Assembly: GCA_964550845.1 (NCBI GenBank)
Contig: CAZKAD010000001.1
Span: 21,342-85,341, forward strand
Length of the DNA stretch: 64,000 bases
Direction: 5' to 3'
From: an uncultured Gammaproteobacteria bacterium
Lineage (GTDB): Bacteria; Patescibacteriota; Patescibacteriia; Magasanikbacterales; UBA922
Both the position numbers and the translations under genes were made by a program. Shown here piece by piece: positions 36,661 through 59,537 of this stretch; the first letter of the stretch is position 1, and each line of letters opens with the position of its first letter. The notes under the pieces are model-generated. The model saw only the letters and a list, made by a program, of their open reading frames with translations, was not told the origin of the DNA and did not search any database.

Positions 36661-37644
36661 ATGACATATCGAAAAGCAATCATTTATCGACGTGTGTCGA
36701 CTGCAGCCCAGCTTAATGGAAATGCATTGTTGACACAACAATTGCAATGTGAAGAATGGATTCAAGCTAGATATCCCGAATTAGAAATCAAAACTCGAAC
36801 TGACGTCGGAAGTGGCTGGAATAAAAATAAACGAGAGCCATATCAATTGCTTGAGAAAATGCAGAATATAGTTGATTCATGCACGAAGACATTGATTGTC
36901 ATTTATTGTATCGATCGATTCCTTCGAGATGTTAAAACGGCAGAAGAAATCTTACCTAAACTCAAGGAGAATAAAAATCGAATCGTGTTTTTGCTTGAAA
37001 ATCTTGACTATCACAATTTTTCTGGCAAGGATGTCTACTTGAAAATTATTAGGGGAGTCGAATCTGCTCAAACAGAATCAGATGTTAAATCCAAACGCAT
37101 GAAAGATGCCTGGAAAACAAAATGTATGCTGGAAAACAGCCCTGAACTTGAAGATGAGGAATGGAAACTTGAATATGATTCAGAATCTGAATCTGATGAT
37201 GAAAACAAAAGTGCTTTGAATCGAAGGAAAATTGAACCTGTAAAAGTTCAAGAAACTAAACTCGTTCAAGCTCCTGCTTATCGTTTGGCTAATCGACCTC
37301 AAGCGTCGATTCAACCTCCTCAAGCGTCGATTCAACCTCCTCAAGCGTCGATTTATCAATGGCCTCCCCAATTATTGATTGACAATCACTTCGACGATCC
37401 TCTCTTTTCAAAGAAAGAGAAAATTAAAAGGTTAATTCAGACTTGTTCAGAAGGACGTTATACTATCAAATCATTGAATCAACATCTTCTTCAACTTTCT
37501 TCAGTCGCCTTTTCTCTTCAAGTCGAAGAAGTTCCAACCTCGTGGGATGGAATGGCAACTTTACTAAATCTTTTTGAGATCTGCTGGGTGCCAGAAATTC
37601 CGAAAGGAGAATGGACTGCCGAGAAAGCAAAGGCTTTTAATTAA
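36661..37644 (+). CDS. serine recombinase (resolvase/invertase catalytic domain)
   Basis: AIIYRRVSTAAQ (nucleophile Ser), IYCIDRFLRD. Internal 3x PQASIQP repeat. Confidence 0.75.
   Translation: MTYRKAIIYRRVSTAAQLNGNALLTQQLQCEEWIQARYPELEIKTRTDVGSGWNKNKREPYQLLEKMQNIVDSCTKTLIVIYCIDRFLRDVKTAEEILPKLKENKNRIVFLLENLDYHNFSGKDVYLKIIRGVESAQTESDVKSKRMKDAWKTKCMLENSPELEDEEWKLEYDSESESDDENKSALNRRKIEPVKVQETKLVQAPAYRLANRPQASIQPPQASIQPPQASIYQWPPQLLIDNHFDDPLFSKKEKIKRLIQTCSEGRYTIKSLNQHLLQLSSVAFSLQVEEVPTSWDGMATLLNLFEICWVPEIPKGEWTAEKAKAFN
37297..37356 (+). repeat. 21-bp coding tandem repeat, about 2.8 copies (PQASIQP)
   Basis: cctcaagcgtcgattcaacct at 37297, 37318, 37339. Confidence 0.9.
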
Positions 37645-37756: not shown

Positions 37757-39193
37757 ATGAGTATTCGAGCTGGCTGCCGAATTCCATCAAAAGGGTTATT
37801 AATTAATTTAGATACCAAAGAGATTCTTAATTTCTCAGATCATCTTAACTTGAACATAGGAGGCATCTATGATTACTCACCTCAACGGAAATGCGGATCT
37901 CTTGATTTCCCGTCCGATGATGAAATAAAAGGATACAATATGGTTTGTTACAATGGCAAACTTGATAAGTTTGCCACAATGACTAGAAAATATATTTATT
38001 TCTGGGATCTTTCCACAATTAGAGAAAAGGTTCCTTATCAGAGATGCAAACGTCCATCCTCACCATGTGTGAATTTCGGATATCTTGATAATGAATGTGT
38101 AATTGTGCTTGAAGACGAATCTTACAAAGATATTTATACCTTATACACTTACAAAACAAATTTTGTTGGACAAAAGCTTGAATTAATTGCCAAGATTCCA
38201 ACCGAATGTGATAATATTGTGACAGATGGAAATCAAATTATAGTCGGTGACGAACATTCTTCGGTTTACTCAATTTTTGAATTTGATGAAAAACAGAGAT
38301 TGATATTTAGTGACGTCATTCAAGTTGAACAACCTGACCATTTAATAACTAGTATTTGTACGCCGAAGTTTCAGGTATTTCTATCAAATTTTCAAATGCA
38401 GATTCGCTGTAAAATCGGTAACTTTTCTACTCGAACAAGTAGCACCGTCCAAGATGCTGATCCAACTACATTATATGTTATTCGAACATATAATGTAGTT
38501 GGATCAGCATCTTCAATAATCCATTTCAACTCGTTCAATCACGATAATTTCGACTTTATTATCATCGCCAATGATTACGGTTTTGACGACGAATCTAATT
38601 TCGAGGATATTGATGAATTTTGGGATAATTATACTCCTTTGAATATCTATCGAATAAATCTCCCAAATAAAGAGATTATTCAAATCGACGAAGAAGTCGA
38701 TTACTGGGAAAATAATGATCAATTTCGAGCAGCTAGACAAATAGTTCATTATCCGGCTCATGATTTTTTAATCCTCCAAAGAGATGTTATCGAAATATGG
38801 AATCTTTTTCCTATGTTTAAGCTGTGGGCATCTGATCAAATGTTCGATAAATGGGAAAAGATTGCAATTACCAATAAACTCGAAGCAACTGGAATCACCC
38901 ATGGTGTTCAAAAAACAACCATCTTTCTTGCACCATGCATTTTTGCAAATCTGATTGCATCAGGGTTATTTGAATTAAACAAGGAGGAAATTTTAACTTC
39001 CTTTTTACAAAAAGATTTGTATGATCCTCGTTTGTTAATGACGATTTGGTCTTTTGTTTACGAGCCAAGATTGGCAAGTGGAGATTACCAGATTAATGAA
39101 ATCTCTTCAGATGATGATTCCTTAAATGAAGATGAAGATTCGTTCTTCCGTCTACGATCCATGATTGTCGAATGGAGATTACCAGATCAATAA
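37757..39193 (+). CDS. LYDPR-box family protein, type I (large), with acidic C-terminal extension
   Basis: ILTSFLQKDLYDPRLLMTIWSFVY. N-terminal region resembles ORF 460..1422. Confidence 0.8.
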   Translation: MSIRAGCRIPSKGLLINLDTKEILNFSDHLNLNIGGIYDYSPQRKCGSLDFPSDDEIKGYNMVCYNGKLDKFATMTRKYIYFWDLSTIREKVPYQRCKRPSSPCVNFGYLDNECVIVLEDESYKDIYTLYTYKTNFVGQKLELIAKIPTECDNIVTDGNQIIVGDEHSSVYSIFEFDEKQRLIFSDVIQVEQPDHLITSICTPKFQVFLSNFQMQIRCKIGNFSTRTSSTVQDADPTTLYVIRTYNVVGSASSIIHFNSFNHDNFDFIIIANDYGFDDESNFEDIDEFWDNYTPLNIYRINLPNKEIIQIDEEVDYWENNDQFRAARQIVHYPAHDFLILQRDVIEIWNLFPMFKLWASDQMFDKWEKIAITNKLEATGITHGVQKTTIFLAPCIFANLIASGLFELNKEEILTSFLQKDLYDPRLLMTIWSFVYEPRLASGDYQINEISSDDDSLNEDEDSFFRLRSMIVEWRLPDQ

Positions 39194-39319: not shown

Positions 39320-39982
39320 ATGAATATCGATTTGTTTGACAAATTTCCTTTATCATGTCTAAAATTTAGCGGATCAATTCGGGCCCGTTATGAAAACTTT
39401 GATCAATTTGTTCAGCTTTGTTCCATTATTGCTGAGAAAAAACAGTATCACACTATACATTTCAATCAAGAAGATGCCCGAAAAACTAATTTTACTGATA
39501 TTTCAATTCAATATCATTCGATAAAGAGGATTAATGAAGTTTGTTATTCATCTGAGATGAACGTATTAAAAATAAAGAAAACAATTTTAGGCATTCGATA
39601 CATCAACATCGATAATCTTGATGTACTGCAAAAATTACTTCAGTCACCTACGTTGTATCCTGGAGCTACATTGGACATTGATATTGATTTAGATTATGAA
39701 TCAAGCAACGAAACGAAAAATATAAGCACTAAAAATGAATTGGCTGTATTGGACATGATGATTCAGTCAGAATCACCATTGAGGAATCTTGATATTAAAT
39801 ATTATGTTGGCAATCTTGGTGGAATGAGAGAATTGAATATCAGTAGCTTACTCCGATTGATGCAGTTTGTTTGCTGCGGGTTGAATCTACGTGATTATTC
39901 TACATGGTCTTCCTTTCTAACTCGAGAATTATATGATCCGAGAATACTTAGTTTAATTGCGAAATTTGCATTTTGCATGTAA
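39320..39982 (+). CDS. LYDPR-box family protein, type II
   Basis: ESPLRNL...LMQFVCCGLN...WSSFLTRELYDPRILSLIAKFAF. Confidence 0.8.
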   Translation: MNIDLFDKFPLSCLKFSGSIRARYENFDQFVQLCSIIAEKKQYHTIHFNQEDARKTNFTDISIQYHSIKRINEVCYSSEMNVLKIKKTILGIRYINIDNLDVLQKLLQSPTLYPGATLDIDIDLDYESSNETKNISTKNELAVLDMMIQSESPLRNLDIKYYVGNLGGMRELNISSLLRLMQFVCCGLNLRDYSTWSSFLTRELYDPRILSLIAKFAFCM

Positions 39983-39988
39983 AATTGA
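39981..39988 (+). promoter_or_regulatory. AAAATTGA promoter-like octamer
   Basis: 43 nt upstream of ATG 40031. Confidence 0.65.
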
Positions 39989-40030
39989 TTTCTCTTCGAG
40001 ATAAAAACAATTTATATTATAATTATAGTA

Positions 40031-40693
40031 ATGTTTTCAAACTTACATGAAATAAAATCAGAATTAGTTGGTACAATTAAAACTATTTCTCGATCAGGTG
40101 AAGAGTTTGTCAAACTTTGCGATCAACTTCAACATCTAAATCGTCATACTATTTATTTTTCGACTAATTTTCGATGGTATGCTAATGTTGATGAAAAATT
40201 GGAAGATTTTGAGGACTACGATAGCATTTTTTCTCTTACGATCATTGAATTTGGGACTCAAAATCAATTTGAATTTGAAGCTAAAACTGCCATCTTCAGA
40301 AATAAATGTGTTGAACAAATTCCCCGAATTAACCATATTGATCTCTGGCATGCAGAAGAAATGAATTATCAACTTAATTGCCCTGGTGCAACAGTCGAAC
40401 ATCATTATCGTTCGGGACATAAGAAGGAGATTCATAAAAATTATTTCATACTGCTTCATGATCTCCTCAAATCAGAATCGATGTTGCGCAATTTGAACAA
40501 TGTGGTAACCACGAAAAATGCCATTCGAATCACAGAACTTCTCTCTTTAATGAAAATCATTTGTCTTGGGCTTGTAGATGAGAGCGATTTGAATTCTTTT
40601 TTAACTCGAGAATTGTATGATCCTCGATTGTTAATTACGATTGCCGAATTTACAGATCAACATTCGATTTTAATCAGCGTCAGCCCTTTTTGA
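40031..40693 (+). CDS. LYDPR-box family protein, type II
   Basis: ESMLRNL...LMKIICLGL...NSFLTRELYDPRLLITIAEF. Confidence 0.8.
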   Translation: MFSNLHEIKSELVGTIKTISRSGEEFVKLCDQLQHLNRHTIYFSTNFRWYANVDEKLEDFEDYDSIFSLTIIEFGTQNQFEFEAKTAIFRNKCVEQIPRINHIDLWHAEEMNYQLNCPGATVEHHYRSGHKKEIHKNYFILLHDLLKSESMLRNLNNVVTTKNAIRITELLSLMKIICLGLVDESDLNSFLTRELYDPRLLITIAEFTDQHSILISVSPF

Positions 40694-40710
40694 TGTTTAA
40701 AAACAAAAAT

Positions 40711-40737
40711 GATTTCTCTCTTCTCGAAGAGAGGAAA
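40711..40737 (+). repeat. family-associated intergenic palindrome GATTTCTCTCTTCTCGAAGAGAGGAAA
   Basis: Near-identical copies at about 41457..41485, 42244..42273 and 42901..42929, each just upstream of a type II start codon. Confidence 0.85.
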
Positions 40738-40749
40738 AATAACAATCTC

Positions 40750-41460
40750 ATGTTATCTTCTCTAAAAGAATCGGGACTTGAACTCGTCGGAACATTAAAA
40801 ATTGTTTCACGCAGTTGTGATGATTTTGTCAAACTGTGCCAACAATTTGACAATCTTTATTTTCATCGCCTCTCTTTTTCGGACAATTTCGAATCATATG
40901 TACAAGAGGACAGTAGATTGATCGATTTTGAAGATCAAGACGAAATCTTTGCTCTCACGGTCGTTCAGTTCTTATCAGAATCGGAATATAAATTTAAGGT
41001 AAATAGTTATATTTTCGGAAATGAATGTAATTATCAGATTCCGAATGTTTCTGAAGTTGAACTTTGGGAAGAAAAAGAAATTGATTGTGACTTTGATTGC
41101 CCGAATGCGAGAGTTATTCACAATTATTTTCCTCGATTTGGATTGGAAGTAAATTCTGGAAAAATCTCAAGAAGTCAGGAGGTTTGTAAAAATTATTTAG
41201 TGATGCTTCAACGACTACTCACTTCGGAATCGAGATTGAGAAACTTAGACAATGTAGTGGACCGTTTTAATCATCGAATAAGAGAATTACTGCAATTAAT
41301 GAGACTTATTTGTCTTGGGCTGAATGAAGAGAATTCAAATTCGTCCTTTCGGGACTCGAATATTTTGTCTACCTTTTTGGTCAAAGATTTGTATGATCCT
41401 CGATTGCTGATTCTTATTGCACAATTTGTTGACCAATATTCAATTGTCTTTCAAAACTGA
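40750..41460 (+). CDS. LYDPR-box family protein, type II
   Basis: ESRLRNL...LMRLICLGL...STFLVKDLYDPRLLILIAQF. Start moved to ATG 40750 downstream of the palindrome. Confidence 0.8.
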   Translation: MLSSLKESGLELVGTLKIVSRSCDDFVKLCQQFDNLYFHRLSFSDNFESYVQEDSRLIDFEDQDEIFALTVVQFLSESEYKFKVNSYIFGNECNYQIPNVSEVELWEEKEIDCDFDCPNARVIHNYFPRFGLEVNSGKISRSQEVCKNYLVMLQRLLTSESRLRNLDNVVDRFNHRIRELLQLMRLICLGLNEENSNSSFRDSNILSTFLVKDLYDPRLLILIAQFVDQYSIVFQN

Positions 41461-41500
41461 TTTCTCTCTTCTCGAAGAGAGGAAAATTATTATTTCAGTT

Positions 41501-42187
41501 ATGTTCCCTGCTCTCAGCGAATTAAATCCCGAATTAATCGGAACATTTAAAATCGTCTCCCGATCAAGTGAAGATTTTATTAAACTTTGTCACAAGCTGC
41601 AGAATCAATCTCATCATATAATCTCCTTTTCGGAGAATTTTCAATCATGTATTGAAGATGACGAAAGATTGATCAATTTTGAAAACCAAAATGAAATTTT
41701 CGCCCTTACGGTGCTTGAATTCAGATCAGAAAATCAATTTCAATTAGATGTTGAGACCTTTATTTTCCGTCAGCAATGCGATTCACAAATTCCTGGTGTT
41801 TCCACGATTGAACTTTGGAGTGAAATGGAAATTAATTACCAATTTGATTGTCCCGGTGCAACGGTGGTTCATCGTTACTTTCCTTCACGTCAGAAAAATA
41901 GAATGACTGGTAAAACTACATTGATACCGCAAAGTAAAAAGTATTTCCAAATGTTGCAAAGGTTTCTTCTTTCTGAGTCGCCTTTCCGTAACTTGAATAA
42001 TGTAATTCCTCCTTATGATAGTGTTTCAGTCTCAGAACTCCTTCATTTAATGAGAATTACTTGTCTCGGTCTTGTGGATGATGGGATAATGAACTACTTT
42101 TTAACTCGTGAATTGTACGATCCTCGATTGCTATATTTGATTGCGAAGTTTGGAGATACTTATTCAATTGTGGGGGAATTGGAGTAA
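41501..42187 (+). CDS. LYDPR-box family protein, type II
   Basis: ESPFRNL...LMRITCLGL...NYFLTRELYDPRLLYLIAKF. Start at ATG 41501. Confidence 0.8.
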   Translation: MFPALSELNPELIGTFKIVSRSSEDFIKLCHKLQNQSHHIISFSENFQSCIEDDERLINFENQNEIFALTVLEFRSENQFQLDVETFIFRQQCDSQIPGVSTIELWSEMEINYQFDCPGATVVHRYFPSRQKNRMTGKTTLIPQSKKYFQMLQRFLLSESPFRNLNNVIPPYDSVSVSELLHLMRITCLGLVDDGIMNYFLTRELYDPRLLYLIAKFGDTYSIVGELE

Positions 42188-42245
42188 TCAGAGCAATAGA
42201 AGTAATCGGAGTAATCGGAGTAATCGGAGTAATCAGAGTAAAACT
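42183..42245 (+). repeat. 9-bp tandem repeat, 7 copies (AGTAATCRG)
   Basis: Starts at the stop codon of gene 41501..42187. Confidence 0.85.
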
Positions 42246-42277
42246 GATTTTCTCTCTTCTCGAAGAGAGGAAAAGTA

Positions 42278-42904
42278 ATGTCTTTTTTCAAAGATATAGA
42301 TCCATCAGAGTTTACATCTCTTACAGCAGAGTTAAAGTTTAGTACATTTGAAAGATTAGTTCATTTCATTCAACAAAGTAAAACTGAAAACTCTTATATC
42401 ACCTTAACTTTTAACCGGAGTATCACTGATACATTTGAGGCTAATGCTGAAGTTTGTAGATATTCAGATTCATCTTTCGTCATTCATATACATGTCGAAT
42501 TGAAAGAAGGTCAATCCTTAACTATTCCAAATATAGACGAAGTAAACATCGATCTTAAATATTTATCCACTAAACCCGACATTGATTTTCCGCAAGCAAT
42601 AGTAAAATTACTTTGTGATAGTTCAAGTAGAAATCAACTTGAACCAAAAGCTTTATCCATTTTACTTAATTCAACTTCAAAGCTAAGAAATCTTCCTTTC
42701 TTCTATACTTCATTACATGATAATAATGATGAAGAGCTCAAACTCAACTTTTTGATTCGATTGATGAGACTGGTTTGTTGTGGAATGAGCGAAGAGAATT
42801 CAAACATTTGGTCTACCTTTCTCACAAAAGAATTGTATGATCCTCGATTAATGATTCTGATTGCGCGATTCATCGATCAATGTTCAGATGTCTTACAAAA
42901 CTGA
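42278..42904 (+). CDS. LYDPR-box family protein, type II
   Basis: TSKLRNL...LMRLVCCGM...WSTFLTKELYDPRLMILIARF. Confidence 0.8.
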   Translation: MSFFKDIDPSEFTSLTAELKFSTFERLVHFIQQSKTENSYITLTFNRSITDTFEANAEVCRYSDSSFVIHIHVELKEGQSLTIPNIDEVNIDLKYLSTKPDIDFPQAIVKLLCDSSSRNQLEPKALSILLNSTSKLRNLPFFYTSLHDNNDEELKLNFLIRLMRLVCCGMSEENSNIWSTFLTKELYDPRLMILIARFIDQCSDVLQN

Positions 42905-42936
42905 TTTCCTCTCTTTTCGAAGAGAGGAAAGTAATA

Positions 42937-43571
42937 ATGTCACTCATTAAAGATGTCGATCTTTCAGAGATTATATCTTTGAAAATGGAACTTAAATTTG
43001 GTACCCCTGAAAAATTAATCCGTTTCATTCAACAAAATAAAGGCCAAAATTTTCAATGCAAATTGACCTTTAGCCGTAGTAAAACTGACACATTTGAGGC
43101 TGCTGTCGAAGTTCGCAAACTTTCGAAAATTTTCGTTGTTGATATGCATGTCGAGATGAAAGAAGATCAATCTATAACCATTCCGGATATAGATGAAATC
43201 AACATTAATTTTTCATATTTATCCGAAAAACCAGATATCGATTGCCCGGGAGCAAAAGTATATTTATACTGCGGTGGTTCAATTACTGATCAAATCGAGA
43301 TAGAAACTTTAACTATTTTACTTAATTCAACTTCAAAGCTGAGAAATCTTCCTTTCTTTTGCGTTCCATGGAACAGTATTGACAGAGAAATCTTCCTTTC
43401 TTTTGCGTTCCATGGAACAGTATTGACAGAGAGCTCAAACTCAACTTTCTGATTCGATTGATGAGACTTGTTTGTTGTGGTGTTTGTGAAGAGGATAATG
43501 TATGGCAATTCTTTTTGACTCAAGAATTGTATGATCCGAGATTACTTAGTGGCATTGCAGCGTTTAATTAA
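42937..43571 (+). pseudogene. LYDPR-box family member, type II, frameshifted by a 44-bp tandem duplication
   Basis: Reads ...TSKLRNLPFFCVPWNSIDRE, then duplicated unit 43341..43384 / 43385..43428. Removing one copy restores ...LKLNFLIRLMRLVCCGVCEEDNVWQFFLTQELYDPRLLSGIAAFN, with stop at 43569..43571. Confidence 0.75.
43341..43428 (+). repeat. 44-bp exact tandem duplication
   Basis: gagaaatcttcctttcttttgcgttccatggaacagtattgaca x2. Confidence 0.95.
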
Positions 43572-43620
43572 TTTAGAGAGTCTCGAAGAGACGTTTAACT
43601 AATTCAGAGAGTCAAGAGAA
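43562..43620 (-). repeat. TTAAAC-hairpin repeat, reverse orientation (about 31-bp unit, 2 copies)
   Basis: gtttaaYtaattYagagagtc twice, with gtctc-gaa-gagac stem. Confidence 0.7.
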
Positions 43621-43719
43621 AGTAGCTAATTCAAAATATTCATCTCCTTTCGAAGAGATAAAAAGTGATTAATTCTTTTGCGTATAAAAGAATTAAAATA
43701 AAAGAATTAAAATTAAAAG

Positions 43720-44403
43720 ATGGACAAACCTTTTAACCAGTCTCAAGAGACGTTTAATCCAATTGAGATTTTTCGTATTGAATCTGACACTTTGATTAAG
43801 AAGCTGGGAAAAGGTCCACGTGGAAATATATTGAATGAATATTTTGAAGTGCCTAAAAAATTTACTCAAGGAATGTTGTACTTCTATTTTTCGCATCATG
43901 TATTTGACCACTTTGAAGAAAAGCTCGACACAAAAATTATCTTCCCTCGAAATCAGATAAAAAATTTTCAACTCTTTCTTAAGCAAAATTACCCGGATAC
44001 TTCATCATTTCGATTTCTCTATTATTTACATCAAATACATCCAGAACATTGTATTATTGGTATCGAAAATGGACAAGGTGTCCATCATTTTTTCAAACAT
44101 GACTATGGATTGTACGGAGATATGTATGAAAACTACTATCATTTTCTCGAAATCATTGTTCGATTGATTGGTGAAAAAGTTGATCATGGTTATGATCCAC
44201 TTGGAGAATTGGTTGCCAATGGATTGATCGACAATGGACAATTTTATGCCTTTCTCACAAAAGAATTGTATGATCCTCGTGTTTTAATTATGATTCATCA
44301 ATTTGCCTTCGATCCAAATAAAACTCGATATTTGTCTGCTTCCGGAGAAGTTATGGAAGAAGAAATTAAACAGCTTCAACAAGATGAAAATAATGAAGAT
44401 TAA
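43720..44403 (+). CDS. LYDPR-box family protein, type III
   Basis: FNPIEIFRI...YFYFS...NYPDT...GEKVDHGYDPLGELVANGL...FLTKELYDPRVLIMIHQFAFDP. Confidence 0.8.
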   Translation: MDKPFNQSQETFNPIEIFRIESDTLIKKLGKGPRGNILNEYFEVPKKFTQGMLYFYFSHHVFDHFEEKLDTKIIFPRNQIKNFQLFLKQNYPDTSSFRFLYYLHQIHPEHCIIGIENGQGVHHFFKHDYGLYGDMYENYYHFLEIIVRLIGEKVDHGYDPLGELVANGLIDNGQFYAFLTKELYDPRVLIMIHQFAFDPNKTRYLSASGEVMEEEIKQLQQDENNED

Positions 44404-44487
44404 ATTCTTTTATCTCCTCTCGGGGAGATATAAAAAATGAATTTCCGACGAAACTCAAAGGTATAAAAGAAAGATAGAATAAAAGAA

Positions 44488-45189
44488 ATGACTCAATTTA
44501 CACCAATTGATATCTTTCGAATTGATGCCCAGATTCTAAGTGAGAAAATTGATAATATTAAAAAATATGTCCAGCTCGATGAAAAATTTTCTCGAGGTAT
44601 ATTATACTTTTATTTTTCATGGGAAATAGAAATGGTAAAAGTTTCTCAAAAAGACTGCTTTCACAAGTTCAAGGAATTTCTTCGGCAAAATTATCCAGAT
44701 ACTTTTCCTTTCCATTTTCTCTATCATCTTCATCGGAAAGCAAACAGATCTTACACTTTAGCCGAAAATAACCGAGGAGTTATATATACATATATACATG
44801 ATTATGGTTTGTATGGGAATGAAGTTAGTAATCGTGATAGCTTTTTTGAAACTACTATTCGAACATTTGGTGAAAAAGTTGATCATGGTTATGATCCCCT
44901 TGGCGAATTAGTTGCTTCAGGATTAAACAGTGAAGGCATTTTTCATGCCTTTCTCACAAAAGAATTGTATGATCCTCGTGTTTTGATTTTGATTCATCGA
45001 TTCGCCTTTGATCCAGATAAAGAAAAATTCTACAATGTATATGGAAAGATTGTCGAAGAAGACCTCGACGAGAACGATTCGATGTCATTTGACATAGCAT
45101 CAGACGAAGAGATATTCGATGAAAGTGATGAGGAGATATTCGATGAAAGTGACGATGAAAGTGACGATGAAAGTGATGAAGAGAATTAA
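44488..45189 (+). CDS. LYDPR-box family protein, type III, acidic repeat tail
   Basis: Same architecture, FLTKELYDPRVLILIHRFAFDP, with tail SDEEIFDESDEEIFDESDDESDDE. Confidence 0.8.
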   Translation: MTQFTPIDIFRIDAQILSEKIDNIKKYVQLDEKFSRGILYFYFSWEIEMVKVSQKDCFHKFKEFLRQNYPDTFPFHFLYHLHRKANRSYTLAENNRGVIYTYIHDYGLYGNEVSNRDSFFETTIRTFGEKVDHGYDPLGELVASGLNSEGIFHAFLTKELYDPRVLILIHRFAFDPDKEKFYNVYGKIVEEDLDENDSMSFDIASDEEIFDESDEEIFDESDDESDDESDEEN

Positions 45190-52112: not shown

Positions 52113-52152
52113 GACGTTTAACCACTTCAGAGAGTCCTTCGGGACGTTTAAA
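52113..52152 (-). repeat. TTAAAC-hairpin repeat, reverse orientation (2 copies)
   Basis: gacgtttaac...gtccttcgggacgtttaaa. The second copy contains the stop of gene 52148..53866. Confidence 0.8.
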
Positions 52153-53866
52153 GAAATGAGGCGCAATGTTGCAACTGATCGGCGTTTATTTTTCTTCCAA
52201 CCGCTGCATTTGGAATAGTTTGGAGGTCCATTGGAGGTGCGCTTGGAATTTGAAGTGCTCGAGGGATAAGCTGATCGACTACAGGAGCTGATGTCGGAGT
52301 TGGAGCCATGCTCAGTTGTGGTACACCCGATTGTGATGGAGCCATACTCAACCGACCAGCTTGAGCTGAAGTCATCAAAGGAAAGCCTGGGACACTTCTT
52401 CCGGAACCTTGTGAGACTGACATTGCCCGAACTGAAGATTTGTTCAAACCAAAAGTGGCCTGAAGAGCGGGAGAAACTGAGCTTCTTGCTTTTCTTCGAA
52501 TCGATCGAACCAATGAATCCTTTTTCTTCTTTGAGATATTTTCAATCCCCATTTGCTGAGCAATTTCTTTCAAGTCAGCCACCTTCAATTCTCGAAGCTC
52601 AGTCGTTGAAGGAATCTCCATTGATCGATCGTCAACAATTTTTGGTTGATCGACTACTCCAGCTACACCAATATCCTTGTTGAGCAAAATTCGTCTCAAA
52701 GAGCGAGGAGAATATCTTGAATATCCCCTGACACCTTCAGCCTTGGCGAGCTCTCGAAGGTCACCCACGCTCAGATCTTGAACCACAGATTCGTAATCTC
52801 GGACGTTGTATTTACGTGGTGAAATAGCTCTTACTGATTTCTGTTTGATCTTTTCAATTAAATCAATTTTCTTCAAATCCTTCTCATCGATAACGTTGAG
52901 ATCTTTTGCAATTTTGTGTAGGGCTTTTGCACTCTTCAAACTCAAGTTAACTTCTCCACTTTCATTTCCAATCAACAAAGGTCGTCGAGGGCTCTTCAAT
53001 CCGTAAGGAACATCCGCCTCGGGCAATGATTTGGCGATATCAAGAAACATCTCACGCATGATGGCCAATGCTTCTTTGCGAGATGATCCACTTGGAACCT
53101 TGACACCAATCTTTTTTCCGAAACTCACCATTTCTTTGACCTTCATATCGAGAACATCTTGCCAAGCAATTCCGTCAAGAGACAGATCTTCAACTCTTGG
53201 AGCAACTTTTGATCCTCGCAATTGAGGCAAACTGTTCGGGTCGACTTTGATTCGTTGAGCGAAAGAATTCAAAGCTGCTTGAGAACCATAGACCGGACGA
53301 GAATTGATTTCAACGCGAGCTGAGTCTTTAGGCAAACCTCGAGGAATGTCACAGTCTTGTTTATCAAGATTGCAAATGAGTTCATCACGACATCCGACAA
53401 AGTCACCTTCCGAACTCACATTCAAATTACATTTTTCACTGTCGAGGAAAGCCAACAGAGCACTTCTCAACAATTTCAGATCTCTATCACTGTCACGAAA
53501 TTGGGAATATCCAGGCATATTCACTTTCTTCGCAATTTCCTTCAGGCCTGAGATATAAGGTTCTTCGATAATTTTTTGTCTCATCACTGCACGTCGACCT
53601 TGTTTGGTTCGGCTTTCTTTTTGTTCTGCGCGTCCAGAAACAAACGATTTGGCTGCGAGAAGAGTTTCACGCATCACTTCTCTTTTTTGAGATGGAGTTC
53701 GATATTTCCGATTCAATTCAGCCAAGCAGCTTTCATCACAACTTTCGATTGCGAGGAGAAATTGTTTCCAAATTTGATCTACTTCCTCTGATTCGAGGTA
53801 AAGAATATCGTTCGGGGTTGCGACTTTAGCAAATCTTGATTCAGGATCTAAGCGAATGTTCGACAT
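52148..53866 (-). CDS. protein with about five HeH/SAP (Rho_N-like) motifs and Pro/Ala/Ser-rich tail
   Basis: LKEIAKKVNMPGYSQF, MVSFGKKIGVKVPSGSSRKEALAIM, LHKIAKDLNVIDEKDLKKIDLIEKI, VGDLRELAKAEGVRGYSRYSPRSLRRIL, VADLKEIAQQMGIENISKKKKDSLVRSI. Confidence 0.7.
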   Translation of the reverse strand: MSNIRLDPESRFAKVATPNDILYLESEEVDQIWKQFLLAIESCDESCLAELNRKYRTPSQKREVMRETLLAAKSFVSGRAEQKESRTKQGRRAVMRQKIIEEPYISGLKEIAKKVNMPGYSQFRDSDRDLKLLRSALLAFLDSEKCNLNVSSEGDFVGCRDELICNLDKQDCDIPRGLPKDSARVEINSRPVYGSQAALNSFAQRIKVDPNSLPQLRGSKVAPRVEDLSLDGIAWQDVLDMKVKEMVSFGKKIGVKVPSGSSRKEALAIMREMFLDIAKSLPEADVPYGLKSPRRPLLIGNESGEVNLSLKSAKALHKIAKDLNVIDEKDLKKIDLIEKIKQKSVRAISPRKYNVRDYESVVQDLSVGDLRELAKAEGVRGYSRYSPRSLRRILLNKDIGVAGVVDQPKIVDDRSMEIPSTTELRELKVADLKEIAQQMGIENISKKKKDSLVRSIRRKARSSVSPALQATFGLNKSSVRAMSVSQGSGRSVPGFPLMTSAQAGRLSMAPSQSGVPQLSMAPTPTSAPVVDQLIPRALQIPSAPPMDLQTIPNAAVGRKINADQLQHCASFL

Positions 53867-53934
53867 CGTCTTTTGGGTAGCGATTTAATTTCTAGAAATA
53901 ATTTTTGAAGATTTGAATTTTTCTTCGGGGGAGA

Positions 53935-53998
53935 TTAAACGTCCCGAAGGACTGATTAAACGTCCAAAGGACTGATTAAACGTCCCGAAGGACTGATT
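53935..53998 (+). repeat. TTAAAC-hairpin repeat array (20-21 bp unit, 3 copies)
   Basis: ttaaacgtcccgaaggactga x3, immediately upstream of AAAATTGA 54001 and the RPB1 start. Confidence 0.95.
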
Positions 53999-54000
53999 AA

Positions 54001-54008
54001 AAAATTGA
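54001..54008 (+). promoter_or_regulatory. AAAATTGA promoter-like octamer
   Basis: 43 nt upstream of the RPB1 ATG 54051. Confidence 0.65.
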
Positions 54009-54050: not shown

Positions 54051-56987
54051 ATGCAGATTGGAGAGGTGGTTGTACGTCTCCTATCACCAGAAGAAATATG
54101 TGCCTTTTCTGTTTGTGAGGTAAAGTATGAGAAGATTCGAAAGAACGATGATAATACTGAAACTCCAGCTGATCCAAGACTTGGAACTCTTGATGAAACA
54201 CCATGCAAAACATGTGGATGTGAATTTCGAGACTGTCCAGGGCACTTTGGTCATATTGTACTTGCAACGCCTATCATTCATCCTCTTGATCGATTTCCGA
54301 TTATTACGGCCGAACTTCTTTCTTGTTTTTGTAGCAATTGTTGTAGATTGCTAGTAACCCGAGAGATGTTAATGATTGAGCGAATAGGTAAATTGCAGAA
54401 AAATAAACGTCTCGCTAAAATCGTAGCTCTTTGTACGAAAATGGGTATTTGTTATCACTGTAATCAAAAAACATTGAAATATAAGCTTGATACCAGCTCG
54501 GGAAGAGCCAAAATCTATTCTCAAATAAAAACGATCACCGGAAACGATGATACCCCAGTTGAGATTCCCGTTGAACAAATTTACAACATTTTCTCCAGAG
54601 TCTTAGATGATGATCTTAAATTGCTTGGAATCAATCCAAAACAATTTCATCCCAAGAATTTGATTATACGTATCTTACCTGTATTGCCATTGAAAACAAT
54701 GCCTTATATTGTTACAGATAATGAAAAGAGAGAAGATGATTTAATGACTTTCTATCGAAATATCCTTAAGGTTAATTCAAGAATTCTTTCTCATTCATAT
54801 GTTGATCTTGACAAAGAGATTAGCAGTCTTGTCTTTTACATCAGTAATTTTATGGATAATTCAAAAAAGAAAGTTCGCCAACCGAACGGAAGAGCACATA
54901 AATCACTTCGTGAACTTCTTTCAAGTAAAAAAGGTCTACCCCGTATGTGCCTCCTTGGTAAAAGAGTGCACTATTCAAGTCGTACTGTAATTGGAGGTGA
55001 TCCAACTCTTGCGACTGACGAAATCTTTATTCCAAATTGCATTGCTTCAACTGTTTCTGTTCCAGAAACAGTCACTTCGTTCTCAAAAACCAAGCTTGAA
55101 GCACTGTTGAATAAGGGAGAGATTAATTTTATCTCTCGAATCGAGAATGGAACGAAGCGTGTACTCAATCCAAGAATTGCAACCAAAACACAAGGAACAA
55201 TCTTACTTCCGGGTGACAGAGTCTTTCGAAATGAGGTTGAAGTTAAACTTCAACGGAGCGGAGATTTACGCCAAGGAGATCGAATTGTCCGAAAAGTGCT
55301 TAAAAATGGTCAAACAATTGAAGAAACTCTACACGCCGAAGAACCAAAGAAAAGATCTTTCCTTCTTCATGATGGAGATATTGCCCATCGATGGTTACAG
55401 AATGGAGACTGGGTGATTGTCAATCGACAGCCTTCTCTTCATGCTCAATCAATGCTTGGACTCAAAGTAAAACGAACCAATCAGAAACCTGGGAAATATA
55501 CATTTGAAGAACGATCAATTCGTCTTCCTCCAGATGCAATTACTCCTTTGAATGCAGATTTTGATGGTGATGAAAGTAATGTTCACAATCCACAAAATTT
55601 AATGGCAAAATCAGAATATGCAGTTTTAATTAACATTGCTAACAACATTATTGCGAATCAATCTTCAAGACCTTTGATTGGATTGGTGCAAGATGCTCTG
55701 ATTGGATGTTGGAAAATGACACAAGGATGGGTCCCAATTCCAGTCAGCTTGTTTCAAGATATGATTGTCACTGCAAATATCAGTCTTGAGAGAATTGATC
55801 AAGTCCGGCAAGTATATCAAAGGATTTTCGGCGATGGAGATAAATATCTCTATACTGGAAGAGGTATATTGTCGACTGCATTGCCAATTACTTTCAATTA
55901 TAGCTCAAAGAGCAAATCTTATAACTCAGAATCTCTTCAAATTGAAAGAGGTGTAATAATTTCTGGAGCTTATGGAAAAAGCTCGGTTGGAAATCGAAAC
56001 GGAGCAATCCATCATTTTCTCCGAGAAAAAGAAGCGATTCAATTTCTGACTAAAACTCATACTCTTGCTTACGCGTGGGTAGTTCAAAATGCAATCGGTG
56101 TTGGATTATCTGATTGTATTCCTCCGATTGTAGATAACTTCGGAATGATTCCACAAGCGCGCGAACATATTGAAGCAAGTTATCTGAATGCTGTCATTTC
56201 AGAAGAAATTATTTCAGGACGAATCGCGGAACTCTCAGTTTGTCGCGTCTTGAATAATGCTCGTAATGTTGGTCACAAGATTGCCAGTGAATTGATCGGA
56301 AATTCAAATCGAATCAAGCAAATGATTGATGCCGGGTCAAAAGGATCAATGAACAATTTGACTCAAATCATGGTAGCACTTGGACAAAACACCGTGTACA
56401 ACAGACGAATTCCAATGACAAATATTGATGGACTTCGTACATTGCCACATTTTTCAGCCAATAAAGATAATCTGGCTAAAAAATATGAAGAAAGAGGTTT
56501 TATTGATACTTCGTTCTTCAATGGATTGAATCCAATCCAATTCTTTAATCACGCCCAAACCGGCCGTGAAGGTATTGTTAATACCGGTGTCACTACTCGA
56601 GGTTTCGGATACATTCAGAGAAAACTCACTGCATTGTTGAAGAATATCACTATTGCTCAAGATTTTACTGTTCGAGATTGTGGAACAAATCAAATTGTTC
56701 AATTCATTTATGGAGAATTTGGTTTTGCTCCTTCGAAACAAAATCGAGATAAAGGTCAACTTTATGTTGATATCACGACAGCAATTGATAAAATTACAAT
56801 CGAATATGAACTTAAGCATCAGATTGAAGAAATTTCACTCTCAGAACAACAGAAGAGAGATGCTCAAGAAGAAATTGAAGCTGATCGAATCTCGATTGCA
56901 TCAGGTGCAAGTGATAATGATGGTTCTGCCTCAGAAGATTCTATCTCCAACGCAAGTGGAGATGAAAATGATTTTGATGACTTTTAA
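54051..56987 (+). CDS. RPB1: DNA-directed RNA polymerase largest subunit, N-terminal portion only (A'-like)
   Basis: LSPEEICAFSV, zinc sites CKTCGCEFRDCPGHFGH, NRQPSLH, NADFDGDE, bridge helix GREGIVNTGVTTRGFGYIQRKL, QFIYGEFG. Then an acidic non-homologous tail and stop. No trigger-loop region. Confidence 0.93.
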   Translation: MQIGEVVVRLLSPEEICAFSVCEVKYEKIRKNDDNTETPADPRLGTLDETPCKTCGCEFRDCPGHFGHIVLATPIIHPLDRFPIITAELLSCFCSNCCRLLVTREMLMIERIGKLQKNKRLAKIVALCTKMGICYHCNQKTLKYKLDTSSGRAKIYSQIKTITGNDDTPVEIPVEQIYNIFSRVLDDDLKLLGINPKQFHPKNLIIRILPVLPLKTMPYIVTDNEKREDDLMTFYRNILKVNSRILSHSYVDLDKEISSLVFYISNFMDNSKKKVRQPNGRAHKSLRELLSSKKGLPRMCLLGKRVHYSSRTVIGGDPTLATDEIFIPNCIASTVSVPETVTSFSKTKLEALLNKGEINFISRIENGTKRVLNPRIATKTQGTILLPGDRVFRNEVEVKLQRSGDLRQGDRIVRKVLKNGQTIEETLHAEEPKKRSFLLHDGDIAHRWLQNGDWVIVNRQPSLHAQSMLGLKVKRTNQKPGKYTFEERSIRLPPDAITPLNADFDGDESNVHNPQNLMAKSEYAVLINIANNIIANQSSRPLIGLVQDALIGCWKMTQGWVPIPVSLFQDMIVTANISLERIDQVRQVYQRIFGDGDKYLYTGRGILSTALPITFNYSSKSKSYNSESLQIERGVIISGAYGKSSVGNRNGAIHHFLREKEAIQFLTKTHTLAYAWVVQNAIGVGLSDCIPPIVDNFGMIPQAREHIEASYLNAVISEEIISGRIAELSVCRVLNNARNVGHKIASELIGNSNRIKQMIDAGSKGSMNNLTQIMVALGQNTVYNRRIPMTNIDGLRTLPHFSANKDNLAKKYEERGFIDTSFFNGLNPIQFFNHAQTGREGIVNTGVTTRGFGYIQRKLTALLKNITIAQDFTVRDCGTNQIVQFIYGEFGFAPSKQNRDKGQLYVDITTAIDKITIEYELKHQIEEISLSEQQKRDAQEEIEADRISIASGASDNDGSASEDSISNASGDENDFDDF

Positions 56988-56995
56988 CAAATTTT

Positions 56996-57019
56996 TTATT
57001 TACTCCGAGGAGTAAATAA
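56996..57019. terminator. hairpin between convergent genes
   Basis: ttatttactcc-ga-ggagtaaataa. Confidence 0.6.
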
Positions 57020-57048: not shown

Positions 57049-57642
57049 CTATACCGAGTTCTTTGGTTGGTAAAATTCATAGAACTGATCTACAATTCGA
57101 TCAGGAAGATATCCATAATTTTCTTCCCAGTAATAGAGTAAGATAGCAATATCATCACTATCTTTGACAGCATAAAGGGGAGCAATATGACTTACTGCGA
57201 GCTCACCTCCGAAATATTCTTCAGTCAATTGCAAAATTTTCTTGTGTTCTGGTGAAAGAAGTTTGCGTGGCATTTCTAAGAGATCTTTTCGATCGGCGCC
57301 GGAAGGTTGTTCAAATGCTTTATTGAACAAAGAGATATCAATTGGTTGGAGACTAAAAAAGGAAATAAATTCCATCAACTTGGCAATAAATTTCTTCTTC
57401 GAGACTCCATAGGCTTCAGGCGTTTGAAGCATGGCATCGACAAGTTGGGTGGAATCTTTGTTCTCCTTCCATTGTTCAAGAAGAATCTTTCGAATTGTAT
57501 CTTCTCGTTCACCACATTTGAGTTTGGTCGCGATTTTCTCGGAGAGAATTCGGTCACCTTGATGAATCAATTCTTCAACCATTAGCTTGCGGATCCGTTT
57601 TTTTGCCTCATATTCTTCGAGAGATTCCTCGGCCTCGGACAT
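57049..57642 (-). CDS. hypothetical protein
   Basis: 197-aa ORF. Confidence 0.6.
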   Translation of the reverse strand: MSEAEESLEEYEAKKRIRKLMVEELIHQGDRILSEKIATKLKCGEREDTIRKILLEQWKENKDSTQLVDAMLQTPEAYGVSKKKFIAKLMEFISFFSLQPIDISLFNKAFEQPSGADRKDLLEMPRKLLSPEHKKILQLTEEYFGGELAVSHIAPLYAVKDSDDIAILLYYWEENYGYLPDRIVDQFYEFYQPKNSV

Positions 57643-57746: not shown

Positions 57747-59537
57747 ATGGAACAAAAATATTCCCTTGAGGCTAAATATTCATTTGAAGGTGTTTCTCGT
57801 GATGAAATTTTGAAGGCGTACAAAGATAAGCTGGCCGAACAGCCAGCTGAATCGAAGATACCTCTCTTTTATCATCAATTGTACAATATCCGACAAATGC
57901 GCGAGCGAGAAAAGTCACTCTGCATCCCACTGAGTAATGATGACACTGTTCAATCGAGAGTTGGAATTTTGGGAGATCCTCCTGGAACCGGCAAGACGAA
58001 GACTGCAATTTTTGCAATCAAACAGTCTGGTCTCGATTGGCCAAAAACACCCTTCTACACGCAAACAATCCAAGTTTGTTCAAATATTGATGGCAACATC
58101 CGCATTGAACGAAAAGAAAGTTTCATTCGAACTCAGACGACCTGTATTATTACCAATGCGAGTATTTTGAATCAGTGGTTGGAAGAGTTGGTTCTTGCGA
58201 ATATCTCTTACAAAGCGATTCGCAATCATGCTGATTTTCAAACAGATGAAGTGTTTCGATATGAAGTGGTTGTCTGCGTTGATACGATGTATAACGATTT
58301 TGCTGCAAAGTTTCACACTCATGCTTTCAAAGCAATGTACTTCGATGAAATGGATAGCACCTATATTCCAAACATGGAAAGAATGGTGGCTGGATTTTAC
58401 TGGCTCATTTCAGCAACTTTTTCAACTGTGCTTGAGAAGGTCCTTCGTTCGAGAAATCTTCATTTTATGAAGCGATTGTTCAATGAAATTTTGAGCGATA
58501 CTTATTCACAAGAAGATTTGCTAAATGCAATTACGATTCTCTCTCCCGAAGATCTTCGAGATTTGAATCCATTGCCAGATTGTGCATACGTTTTTAACTA
58601 TGAAAATGAAGGATATCATCTTACTCAAGCTCTTTATCCTTTCTTGGACAAAGAGATCATTTCTATGATTGAAAGTGGGGATGTTTGGAATGTACCACAA
58701 AAAATTATTCGAGATACCGAACTTGAAAACTTGTATTCGGTATTGGTCGAAAAAATCGGTCAACAACTTCTTGAAACTGAAGAGAAGATGGCAAAGTATG
58801 CTGGTAAGAGCCTTGCCAAAAAGACCTACGAAGAATGGGTCAAACGAAATCAAATTGTAATCCGAAAGAGAAATCTTCTCTCCGAACTTATCCAGAAAGC
58901 AATGGAAAAACCATGCCCGACTTGTGGTGGGATTATGATTGAACCTCAATTGGCTCTTTGTTGCTATGCCAATGTTTGCTTGAAATGTGCAAAAGGAATG
59001 CACAAAGAAGACTGTAAGATGTGCAAGAAGAAATTCGTTCCCATCCCATTTTTTGAAGCAAAAGAAGATAAAGAAAAATATTGCCCATGTCAAGAAGGTG
59101 TATCAGAGGATGCAAATCTATCGACCAATATTCACCAACCGAAAACCAAGTTGGATCAGGTTCGAGAAATCTTAAAGCAAGGACAGAAAATTTTAATTTT
59201 TGCTTCCTCCAATGGATCGTTTGAAACTTTGACCAAGACGATTGTAGAGATTGGAAAGAAATCTCTTCTCTTCACTGGATCAAATGCAACTCGTGAAAAG
59301 TTACTCTCACAATTTAAATCTGGTAAAGTCGATTGTCTGATCATGAAAGATCAGAAAAATAGTGCTGGAATGAATCTCCAGTGTACGACAGATATTATCA
59401 TTTGGAATTACATGCCACCAGCGTTTGAAAGACAAGCTATCGGTCGAGCTGTTCGACCTGGTCTTGATCATGATGTCAAAATTCACCGATTCAGTCTCCA
59501 AGTCAAGTTCTTTAACGAGTCCCTTGAGGACGTTTAA
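57747..59537 (+). CDS. SNF2-family helicase with embedded RING finger (RAD5/RAD16-like architecture)
   Basis: GDPPGTGKT, MYFDEMDS, RING CPTCGG...CCYANVCLKC...CKMCKK, motif V/VI AGMNLQ...ERQAIGRAVRPG. Confidence 0.85.
   Translation: MEQKYSLEAKYSFEGVSRDEILKAYKDKLAEQPAESKIPLFYHQLYNIRQMREREKSLCIPLSNDDTVQSRVGILGDPPGTGKTKTAIFAIKQSGLDWPKTPFYTQTIQVCSNIDGNIRIERKESFIRTQTTCIITNASILNQWLEELVLANISYKAIRNHADFQTDEVFRYEVVVCVDTMYNDFAAKFHTHAFKAMYFDEMDSTYIPNMERMVAGFYWLISATFSTVLEKVLRSRNLHFMKRLFNEILSDTYSQEDLLNAITILSPEDLRDLNPLPDCAYVFNYENEGYHLTQALYPFLDKEIISMIESGDVWNVPQKIIRDTELENLYSVLVEKIGQQLLETEEKMAKYAGKSLAKKTYEEWVKRNQIVIRKRNLLSELIQKAMEKPCPTCGGIMIEPQLALCCYANVCLKCAKGMHKEDCKMCKKKFVPIPFFEAKEDKEKYCPCQEGVSEDANLSTNIHQPKTKLDQVREILKQGQKILIFASSNGSFETLTKTIVEIGKKSLLFTGSNATREKLLSQFKSGKVDCLIMKDQKNSAGMNLQCTTDIIIWNYMPPAFERQAIGRAVRPGLDHDVKIHRFSLQVKFFNESLEDV

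Follow-up and report, generated by a model that had tools for sequence, protein, structure and literature searches.

Several described multisubunit RNA polymerases have a largest subunit that is made as two polypeptides, and we compare these here with a gene, RPB1-N, that encodes an N-terminal half of this subunit and lies in a stretch of viral DNA of 64,000 nucleotides (contig CAZKAD010000001.1; hereafter the window, meaning the whole 64-kb stretch that was analysed). The archaeal pair Rpo1N/Rpo1C (also RpoA1/RpoA2, or A'/A'') is alike in that the N-terminal piece ends past the bridge helix and its C-terminal counterpart begins 60-70 residues ahead of the trigger-loop motif, but the archaeal genes are operonic, whereas the halves found in viruses related to that of the window are dispersed. 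The bacterial-type enzymes of cyanobacteria and jumbo phages are broken at another position, which in cyanobacteria lies before the bridge helix. Common to these and the viral case is a largest subunit made of two polypeptides, as in the split β' (rpoC1/rpoC2) of cyanobacteria and plastids and the split β/β' of jumbo phages (PMC7598289).

Among nucleocytoplasmic large DNA viruses (NCLDVs), Maumus et al. (2014; PMC4083422) described separate RP1n and RP1c open reading frames (ORFs) in NCLDV-like regions of the moss Physcomitrella patens, found both to be under purifying selection, and termed the structure analogous to archaeal gene fission. The moss genes match the present one in that an NCLDV largest subunit occurs as separate N- and C-terminal ORFs, and differ in being endogenous viral copies in a plant genome with a reported affinity to Iridoviridae/Poxviridae, whereas the window lies on a free viral contig whose promoter and hairpin signals are of the Mimiviridae type; we liken the two by description. 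An acidic DFDDF tail, a feature of the window's clade, is not mentioned in PMC4083422. Such split pieces are also joined for marker extraction by the script ncldv_markersearch of Moniruzzaman et al. (PMC7136201). Finally, a large sister group of metagenomic Imitervirales carries stand-alone halves with the same break, usually far apart, and here the N-halves usually end without a tail at the break, whereas the window's clade adds a Ser/acidic tail of 50-75 residues. A split NCLDV largest subunit and its archaeal analogy have therefore been known since 2014, and the split is common in related viruses; what may go beyond the published literature is how prevalent the split form is, how patchily split and fused forms are distributed, and the clade-specific tail ending D[YF]DFDD(F).

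We consider it probable, at roughly 85%, that RPB1-N is transcribed and translated on its own and that its A'-like product pairs non-covalently with an A''-like subunit from a separate gene. On this reading the gene would give rise to an A'-like polypeptide of ~112 kDa comprising the clamp, zinc sites, NADFDGDE loop, pore, funnel and bridge helix, while the trigger-loop, jaw and cleft part would come from another gene, located elsewhere in a genome that spans at least 259 kb, and the two polypeptides would come together without a covalent bond in the viral polymerase, by analogy with archaeal Rpo1N/Rpo1C. The cut falls at a surface-exposed, indel-prone spot where eukaryotic Rpb1 has its foot insertion, a few residues from the archaeal cut and of independent origin.

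The preliminary description of this DNA, made from the sequence alone, had read the ORF as running from the N-terminal clamp and zinc sites through NADFDGDE and the bridge helix to QFIYGEFG, and every one of these motifs was located in our analysis (Table 1) and is accompanied by Pfam matches. The 978-residue product matches Rpb1 domain 1 (PF04997, E 1.5e-50), domain 2 (PF00623, 5e-34), domain 3 (PF04983) and domain 4 (PF05000), scores of homology that lie far beyond chance, while of domain 5 (PF04998) only model positions 1-64 of 267 are present. Both the Cys/His columns of the clamp motif CKTCGCEFRDCPGHFGH and the NADFDGDE loop are invariant in alignment A2, and the protein can be aligned to solved Rpb1 and A' chains. 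QFIYGEFG occupies residues 884-891, and homology to Rpb1 continues for ~35 residues beyond it. What follows was described beforehand as an unrelated acidic tail and a stop, and it is indeed a 54-residue Ser/Asp/Glu stretch without an RPB1 counterpart.

To place the break, one fungal RPB1 and three fused viral proteins, each taken from bridge helix to trigger loop, were aligned with the C-termini of twelve N-halves (two of them archaeal A', from Thermococcus and AR15) and with the N-terminal ends of eight C-halves, among them the archaeal A'' that match these A'. Tail-less viral N-halves end ...LN.xYE.., and the RPB1 homology of the window's clade stops at the same point. The viral C-halves have their own ATG at this junction and begin M-x-K-(R/K)-x-L-(T/S)-x-x-E-I. 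In the fused relative P0025 the end of the N-half and the start of the C-half are consecutive residues (...INIQYKKTN|KKKRLLNQKEIED...), and P0061 is likewise contiguous, which indicates a clean fission in which nothing was lost or duplicated. The fungal RPB1 carries an insertion of ~100 residues at the break, corresponding to the foot region. Comparison with solved structures places residues 428-897 of the window protein against residues 390-860 of the 880 in Sulfolobus A', and residues 442-893 against 429-874 of yeast Rpb1, and a C-half profile aligns to yeast Rpb1 from ~1028 onward as well as to archaeal A''.

The archaeal A' chains end within ~5 alignment columns of the viral break, so that the rough correspondence to the natural RpoA'/RpoA'' split proposed at the outset holds when related viruses and archaea are brought into the comparison. 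However, the closest homologues of the window protein are viral and eukaryotic Rpb1 and not archaeal ones, fused viral relatives exist, and the archaeal A'/A'' genes are adjacent in one operon (loci L286 and L292), whereas the viral ones are dispersed. From these three observations we conclude that the split is convergent with that of archaea and not inherited from them. The window gene shows neither archaeal-type adjacency nor archaeal descent, and its resemblance to the archaeal pair is one of analogy, not of membership.

The concern that the gene is truncated through an artefact of assembly or sequencing, or has recently become a pseudogene, was raised in part in the preliminary description, as an assembly problem or a defective genome, and apart from the truncation it has nothing in its favour. 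An identical protein is encoded on a 259,314-bp NCBI contig and in two independent Logan assemblies (SRR10036081/82), and from the length of this contig the window amounts to about a quarter of the genome. In a comparison strain (L389, from SRR24742824), which shares 86.5% nucleotide and 95.5% protein identity without indels, the stop codon stands at the identical position and the whole-gene ratio of nonsynonymous to synonymous substitution rates (dN/dS) is 0.03 (978 codons, dS 0.88). Relatives at 68% and 40% protein identity (ENA, JGI) show the same protein end, and the N-half-only architecture recurs in every one of the 11 clusters of proteins (978-1072 amino acids, 35-96% identity) that make up the immediate clade, drawn from independent NCBI, ENA, JGI and Logan assemblies. 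Synteny is also kept in the clade, running from the capping enzyme through RPB1-N and a minus-strand ORF to the SNF2 helicase. Assembly error and pseudogenisation are thus excluded by the independent assemblies, the conserved stop and the dN/dS of 0.03, and RPB1-N is a real, functional and self-contained gene.

The same comparison informs on the tail. The ORF ends ...SGDENDFDDF, its last 51 residues including 15 Asp/Glu and 10 Ser, and relative to strain L389 the tail shows 2 nonsynonymous and 15 synonymous differences (dN/dS 0.023). This purifying selection on both tail and stop indicates that the tail is translated and that translation ends there. Across the clade (C-termini of P0002-P0011) the terminal D[YF]DFDD(F) is kept within a low-complexity, Cys-free tail rich in Ser, Thr, Pro and acidic residues, whose length varies between 50 and 75 residues. 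Similar acidic-aromatic C-termini were seen in some fused RPB1 relatives (...FVDYDEY in P0086/88/100/104) and in some stand-alone C-halves. Judged by their sequences, the acidic-aromatic ends of the clade tails and fused relatives hint at a short linear motif.

Transcription signals flank the gene on both sides. Upstream lies the octamer AAAATTGA, which occurs 40 times in the window against 25.9 copies expected; 23 of these 40 are sense-oriented and within 120 nt upstream of a start codon, where 2.2 would be expected (a 10-fold enrichment). In all, 21 of 58 window genes have it upstream, including those for family B DNA polymerase (PolB), the capping enzyme, RNase H, the ribonucleotide reductase small chain, RPB1-N and SNF2, and upstream of the RPB1-N orthologue it is retained in L389, L003, L169 and L168 amid otherwise divergent flanks. 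A separate observation concerns a 21-bp tandem repeat, GATTAAACGTCCCGAAGGACT (3.3 copies, window 53933-54001), which adjoins the RPB1-N octamer on its upstream side, is absent from strain L389 in spite of the 86.5% nucleotide identity, and recurs as a 19/21 copy at window 52133-52153 on the minus strand, between the phosphatase and Rho_N genes.

Downstream, the gene-end hairpin noted earlier proved to be a perfect 11-bp palindrome, predicted to form a stem of 10 pairs around a 4-nt loop with a folding energy of -11.3 kcal/mol (z = -4.9 versus shuffled sequences). Perfect hairpins with a stem of at least 9 bp are concentrated between genes in the window (20 of 27 are intergenic, whereas intergenic DNA makes up only 11% of the total); the majority are found no more than 150 nt past the 3' end of a gene, and the apex is often CTCNGAG or TTCGAA. 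The RPB1-N hairpin is identical in strain L389, and in each of the relatives a hairpin stands right after the RPB1-N stop with a sequence that differs from one to the next, the pattern expected from selection for structure and not for sequence. Read from these signals, RPB1-N is an independent transcription unit with its own octamer and its own 3' hairpin, the latter being a predicted terminator or polyadenylation-type element.

The preliminary description had left two options, separate genes or a long intron or trans-splicing that joins the halves. The first is favoured by the junction, the gene's own signals, the selected tail and stop, and the dispersed halves in relatives; the second found no intron RNA or intein at the break. 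In its RNA form the second option would make the ORF a first exon, joined to a distant trigger-loop exon by a very long cis-intron or by trans-splicing of mRNA, and we regard this as very improbable. The lineage can splice RPB1, since group I introns (Rfam RF00028) interrupt the N-half of the same gene in the clade relatives L393 (97-493, 97 bits) and L171 (3043-4042, 66 bits), in both cases just after the NADFDGDE loop and in L171 with a 297-amino-acid ORF, and the partner has not been located in the window genome, which also suits such a model. However, the window copy has no intron, and a search of the whole window against Rfam returned no family at gathering score; at E values up to 1 the surroundings of the stop gave only a chance-level snoRNA match inside the neighbouring ORF. 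The ready detection of the introns in L393 and L171 indicates that this search is sensitive enough to find introns in this gene. Nor is there a same-strand downstream exon in the window, and a purifying selection that extends over tail and stop, together with the conserved 3' hairpin behind them, does not fit an exon boundary. In relatives, moreover, the two halves are separated by 86 kb and encoded on opposite strands, or occur in reversed order, arrangements that are irreconcilable with cis-splicing, and the C-halves have their own ATG at the junction.

Joining after translation, by protein trans-splicing through a split intein, is scarcely credible for this gene. Although inteins are common in the virus group, with a Hint insert in the window kinesin and in many RPB1 and PolB homologues, Pfam finds no Hint or intein domain in the N-half, and the acidic, low-complexity tail has no Cys and varies in length within the clade. 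In the sister group the N-halves have no extension and the C-halves start M-x-K right at the junction, so that there is no space in which intein halves could sit.

If the polypeptide does act as one of two subunits, a partner should be encoded elsewhere. Its absence from the window, which the preliminary description had reported for the trigger-loop, jaw and cleft half, was confirmed on both strands by tblastn with four C-halves and by hmmsearch, run without filters, of two C-half profiles against the window ORFs of all six frames, neither of which gave a match. No C-half was present in the 5.4 kb beyond the right window edge, nor in stretches of ~23 kb from five clade relatives, which reach 10 kb to either side of the N-half or, in two of them, of PolB; the protein at the left window edge is absent from the records searched. 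The scans of IMG/VR found no member of the window's clade, and none was among the matches listed from a metagenome scan. A C-half profile built from fused relatives was run against a 90%-identity database. A profile search of a 50%-identity representative library matched 4371 proteins at E ≤ 1e-30, and the best 150 of these all belong to the sister group (E < 1e-132) and are all stand-alone C-halves or intein-bearing versions of them. A scan of genome contigs with the DNA pattern for TQxxLN[TS]FHxAG gave at least 120 matches, those listed being from Woesearchaeota and Methanosarcinales, and supplied the archaeal junction sequences.

Related viruses show what such a partner would look like. Beyond the clade, ~75 of the best 120 homologues of the window protein are N-half-only proteins that stop 40-50 residues past QFxYG, those of the sister group sharing 33-35% identity with it, and stand-alone C-halves (430-520 amino acids, with the domain 5 signature only) make up the majority of the 120 matches listed from the 90%-identity database. 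In IMG/VR, the C-half stands alone, lacking an N-half in the surrounding 3 kb, at ~45 of the best 80 loci. Some relatives show both halves together as separate ORFs: IMGVR_UViG_3300046168_000052 (161,868 bp) has the N-half on its minus strand (~51.6-54.3 kb) and the C-half on its plus strand (~140.0-141.3 kb), in GVMAG-S-3300010158-109 (L008) both ORFs share a strand and the C-half precedes the N-half by 1.5 kb, and in L211 the two are adjacent.

These data bear on the idea that the C-half is truly missing, the genome being defective or incomplete or the function borrowed from elsewhere. No partner came to light in ~150 kb examined from the virus and its clade, which is what this idea predicts, but only about a quarter of the genome is in view, and a sister group with the same break does have partner genes, on the same contig where this can be checked. 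All multisubunit polymerases depend on the trigger loop for catalysis. The N-half is under strong purifying selection, both between strains and throughout a deep clade, which would serve no purpose if no functional enzyme resulted, and we therefore hold the loss or borrowing of the C-half to be very unlikely; from this combined analysis, a gene for the partner is very probably present elsewhere in the genome of the window virus.

Three points weigh against independent expression followed by non-covalent assembly. The C-half of this genome, or of any member of the immediate clade, is not among the ~150 kb examined; we infer both the non-covalent assembly and any role of the tail; and trans-splicing at the RNA level, improbable as we judge it for the reasons above, is compatible with the DNA sequence alone.

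A neighbour-joining tree, which is rough, carries no support values and is indicative only, shows fused and split forms in a patchy arrangement among the Mimivirus-like viruses, for example fused P0025 beside split P0027 and fused P0089 beside split P0067. Interleaving of this kind would imply several independent fissions or re-fusions. Although speculative and, in our estimate, rather doubtful, it is possible that the A'/A'' junction is a repeatedly used seam at which genes have been parted or re-fused several times at the archaeal point, and that the clade tail is a docking element, recruiting the C-half or, in place of the missing C-terminal domain, mRNA-processing enzymes. At some other giant-virus loci in IMG/VR (L228, L229, L255, L257-L259, L262 and L263) RPB1 appears to be cut at a different site, with ORFs of 850-1075 amino acids that run from near N-half residue 476-500 through the C-half; these may reflect introns or a real second fission site. 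A split of this gene in iridoviruses was considered and rejected, given that three presumed iridovirus genomes in IMG/VR (ATV, IIV-3 and IIV-9) have one full-length ORF each.

Table 1. Coordinates of the RPB1-N gene, its motifs, signals and downstream neighbours in the 64-kb window
Feature	Position	Strand	Basis or remark
RPB1 N-terminal-half gene (A'-like subunit)	54051..56987	+	ATG-started ORF, 978 aa + stop; Pfam domains
Zinc-binding clamp motif CKTCGCEFRDCPGHFGH (residues 52-68)	54204..54254	+	Direct reading; inside Pfam Rpb1_1 match
Catalytic metal-binding loop NADFDGDE (residues 501-508)	55551..55574	+	Direct reading; inside Pfam Rpb1_2 match
Bridge helix GREGIVNTGVTTRGFGYIQRKL (residues 838-859)	56562..56627	+	Aligns with the same helix in archaeal A', fungal RPB1 and fused viral RPB1
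Last homologous segment QFIYGEFG...ITIEYELKHQ (residues 884-924)	56700..56822	+	Junction alignment; fission point at segment end
Ser/Asp/Glu-rich tail ending NDFDDF (residues 925-978, 54 aa)	56823..56984	+	Clade-specific; no RPB1 counterpart
Promoter octamer AAAATTGA, Mimivirus-type early promoter element	54001..54008	+	43 nt upstream of RPB1-N ATG
Gene-end palindrome/hairpin	56996..57019	.	9 nt past RPB1-N stop; common to convergent gene 57049..57642(-)
Minus-strand ORF, no Pfam match	57049..57642	-	197 aa, convergent with RPB1-N
SNF2/Helicase_C protein	57747..59537		Pfam

The neighbours of the gene are as first described, namely a minus-strand hypothetical gene followed by the SNF2 helicase, according to the ORF list and Pfam. 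In the relative at 68% identity (L003:13033-15549), the place of the single 197-amino-acid ORF is taken by four minus-strand ORFs in a row, each 175-205 amino acids long.

Both transcription signals, the octamer and the gene-end hairpins, are hallmarks of Mimiviridae (PMC6163669) and on this account point to a Mimivirus-like virus. The window accordingly derives from a Mimivirus-like (Imitervirales-type) NCLDV, and its gene content includes a family B DNA polymerase, a ribonucleotide reductase small chain, a NUDIX hydrolase, an XPG nuclease, several protein kinases, an intein-bearing kinesin, a three-domain capping enzyme, RNase H and a dual-specificity phosphatase. In the kinesin motor gene (window 16275-18800, minus strand) the insert is a Hint/homing-endonuclease intein, also found at L393:19523-21904 in a relative with 52% PolB identity. 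A perfect hairpin with a 29-bp stem and 5-nt loop lies at window 38451-38513 within ORF 37757-39193, just downstream of a serine-recombinase (resolvase) ORF (36661-37644), and may be a mobile-element end or a recombination site. At 39320-45189 on the plus strand is a tandem array of eight paralogous ORFs of ~190-256 amino acids, none of the eight with a Pfam match, whose pairwise identities range from ~30% to 56% over mostly alignable ORFs, distant members sharing short local matches only.

A split viral gene leaves the understanding of RNA polymerase evolution unchanged. What the gene and its relatives indicate is that a viral RNA polymerase tolerates a cut at the surface seam that archaea use, and that the viruses of this group as a rule have the cut form. 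For annotation and phylogenetics this means that both halves need to be found and joined, as otherwise the largest-subunit marker (RNAPL) is truncated. The split also provides a natural system in which to ask how the halves of a catalytic subunit meet in a cytoplasmic virus factory, and its conserved acidic tail gives mutagenesis a concrete target at little cost.

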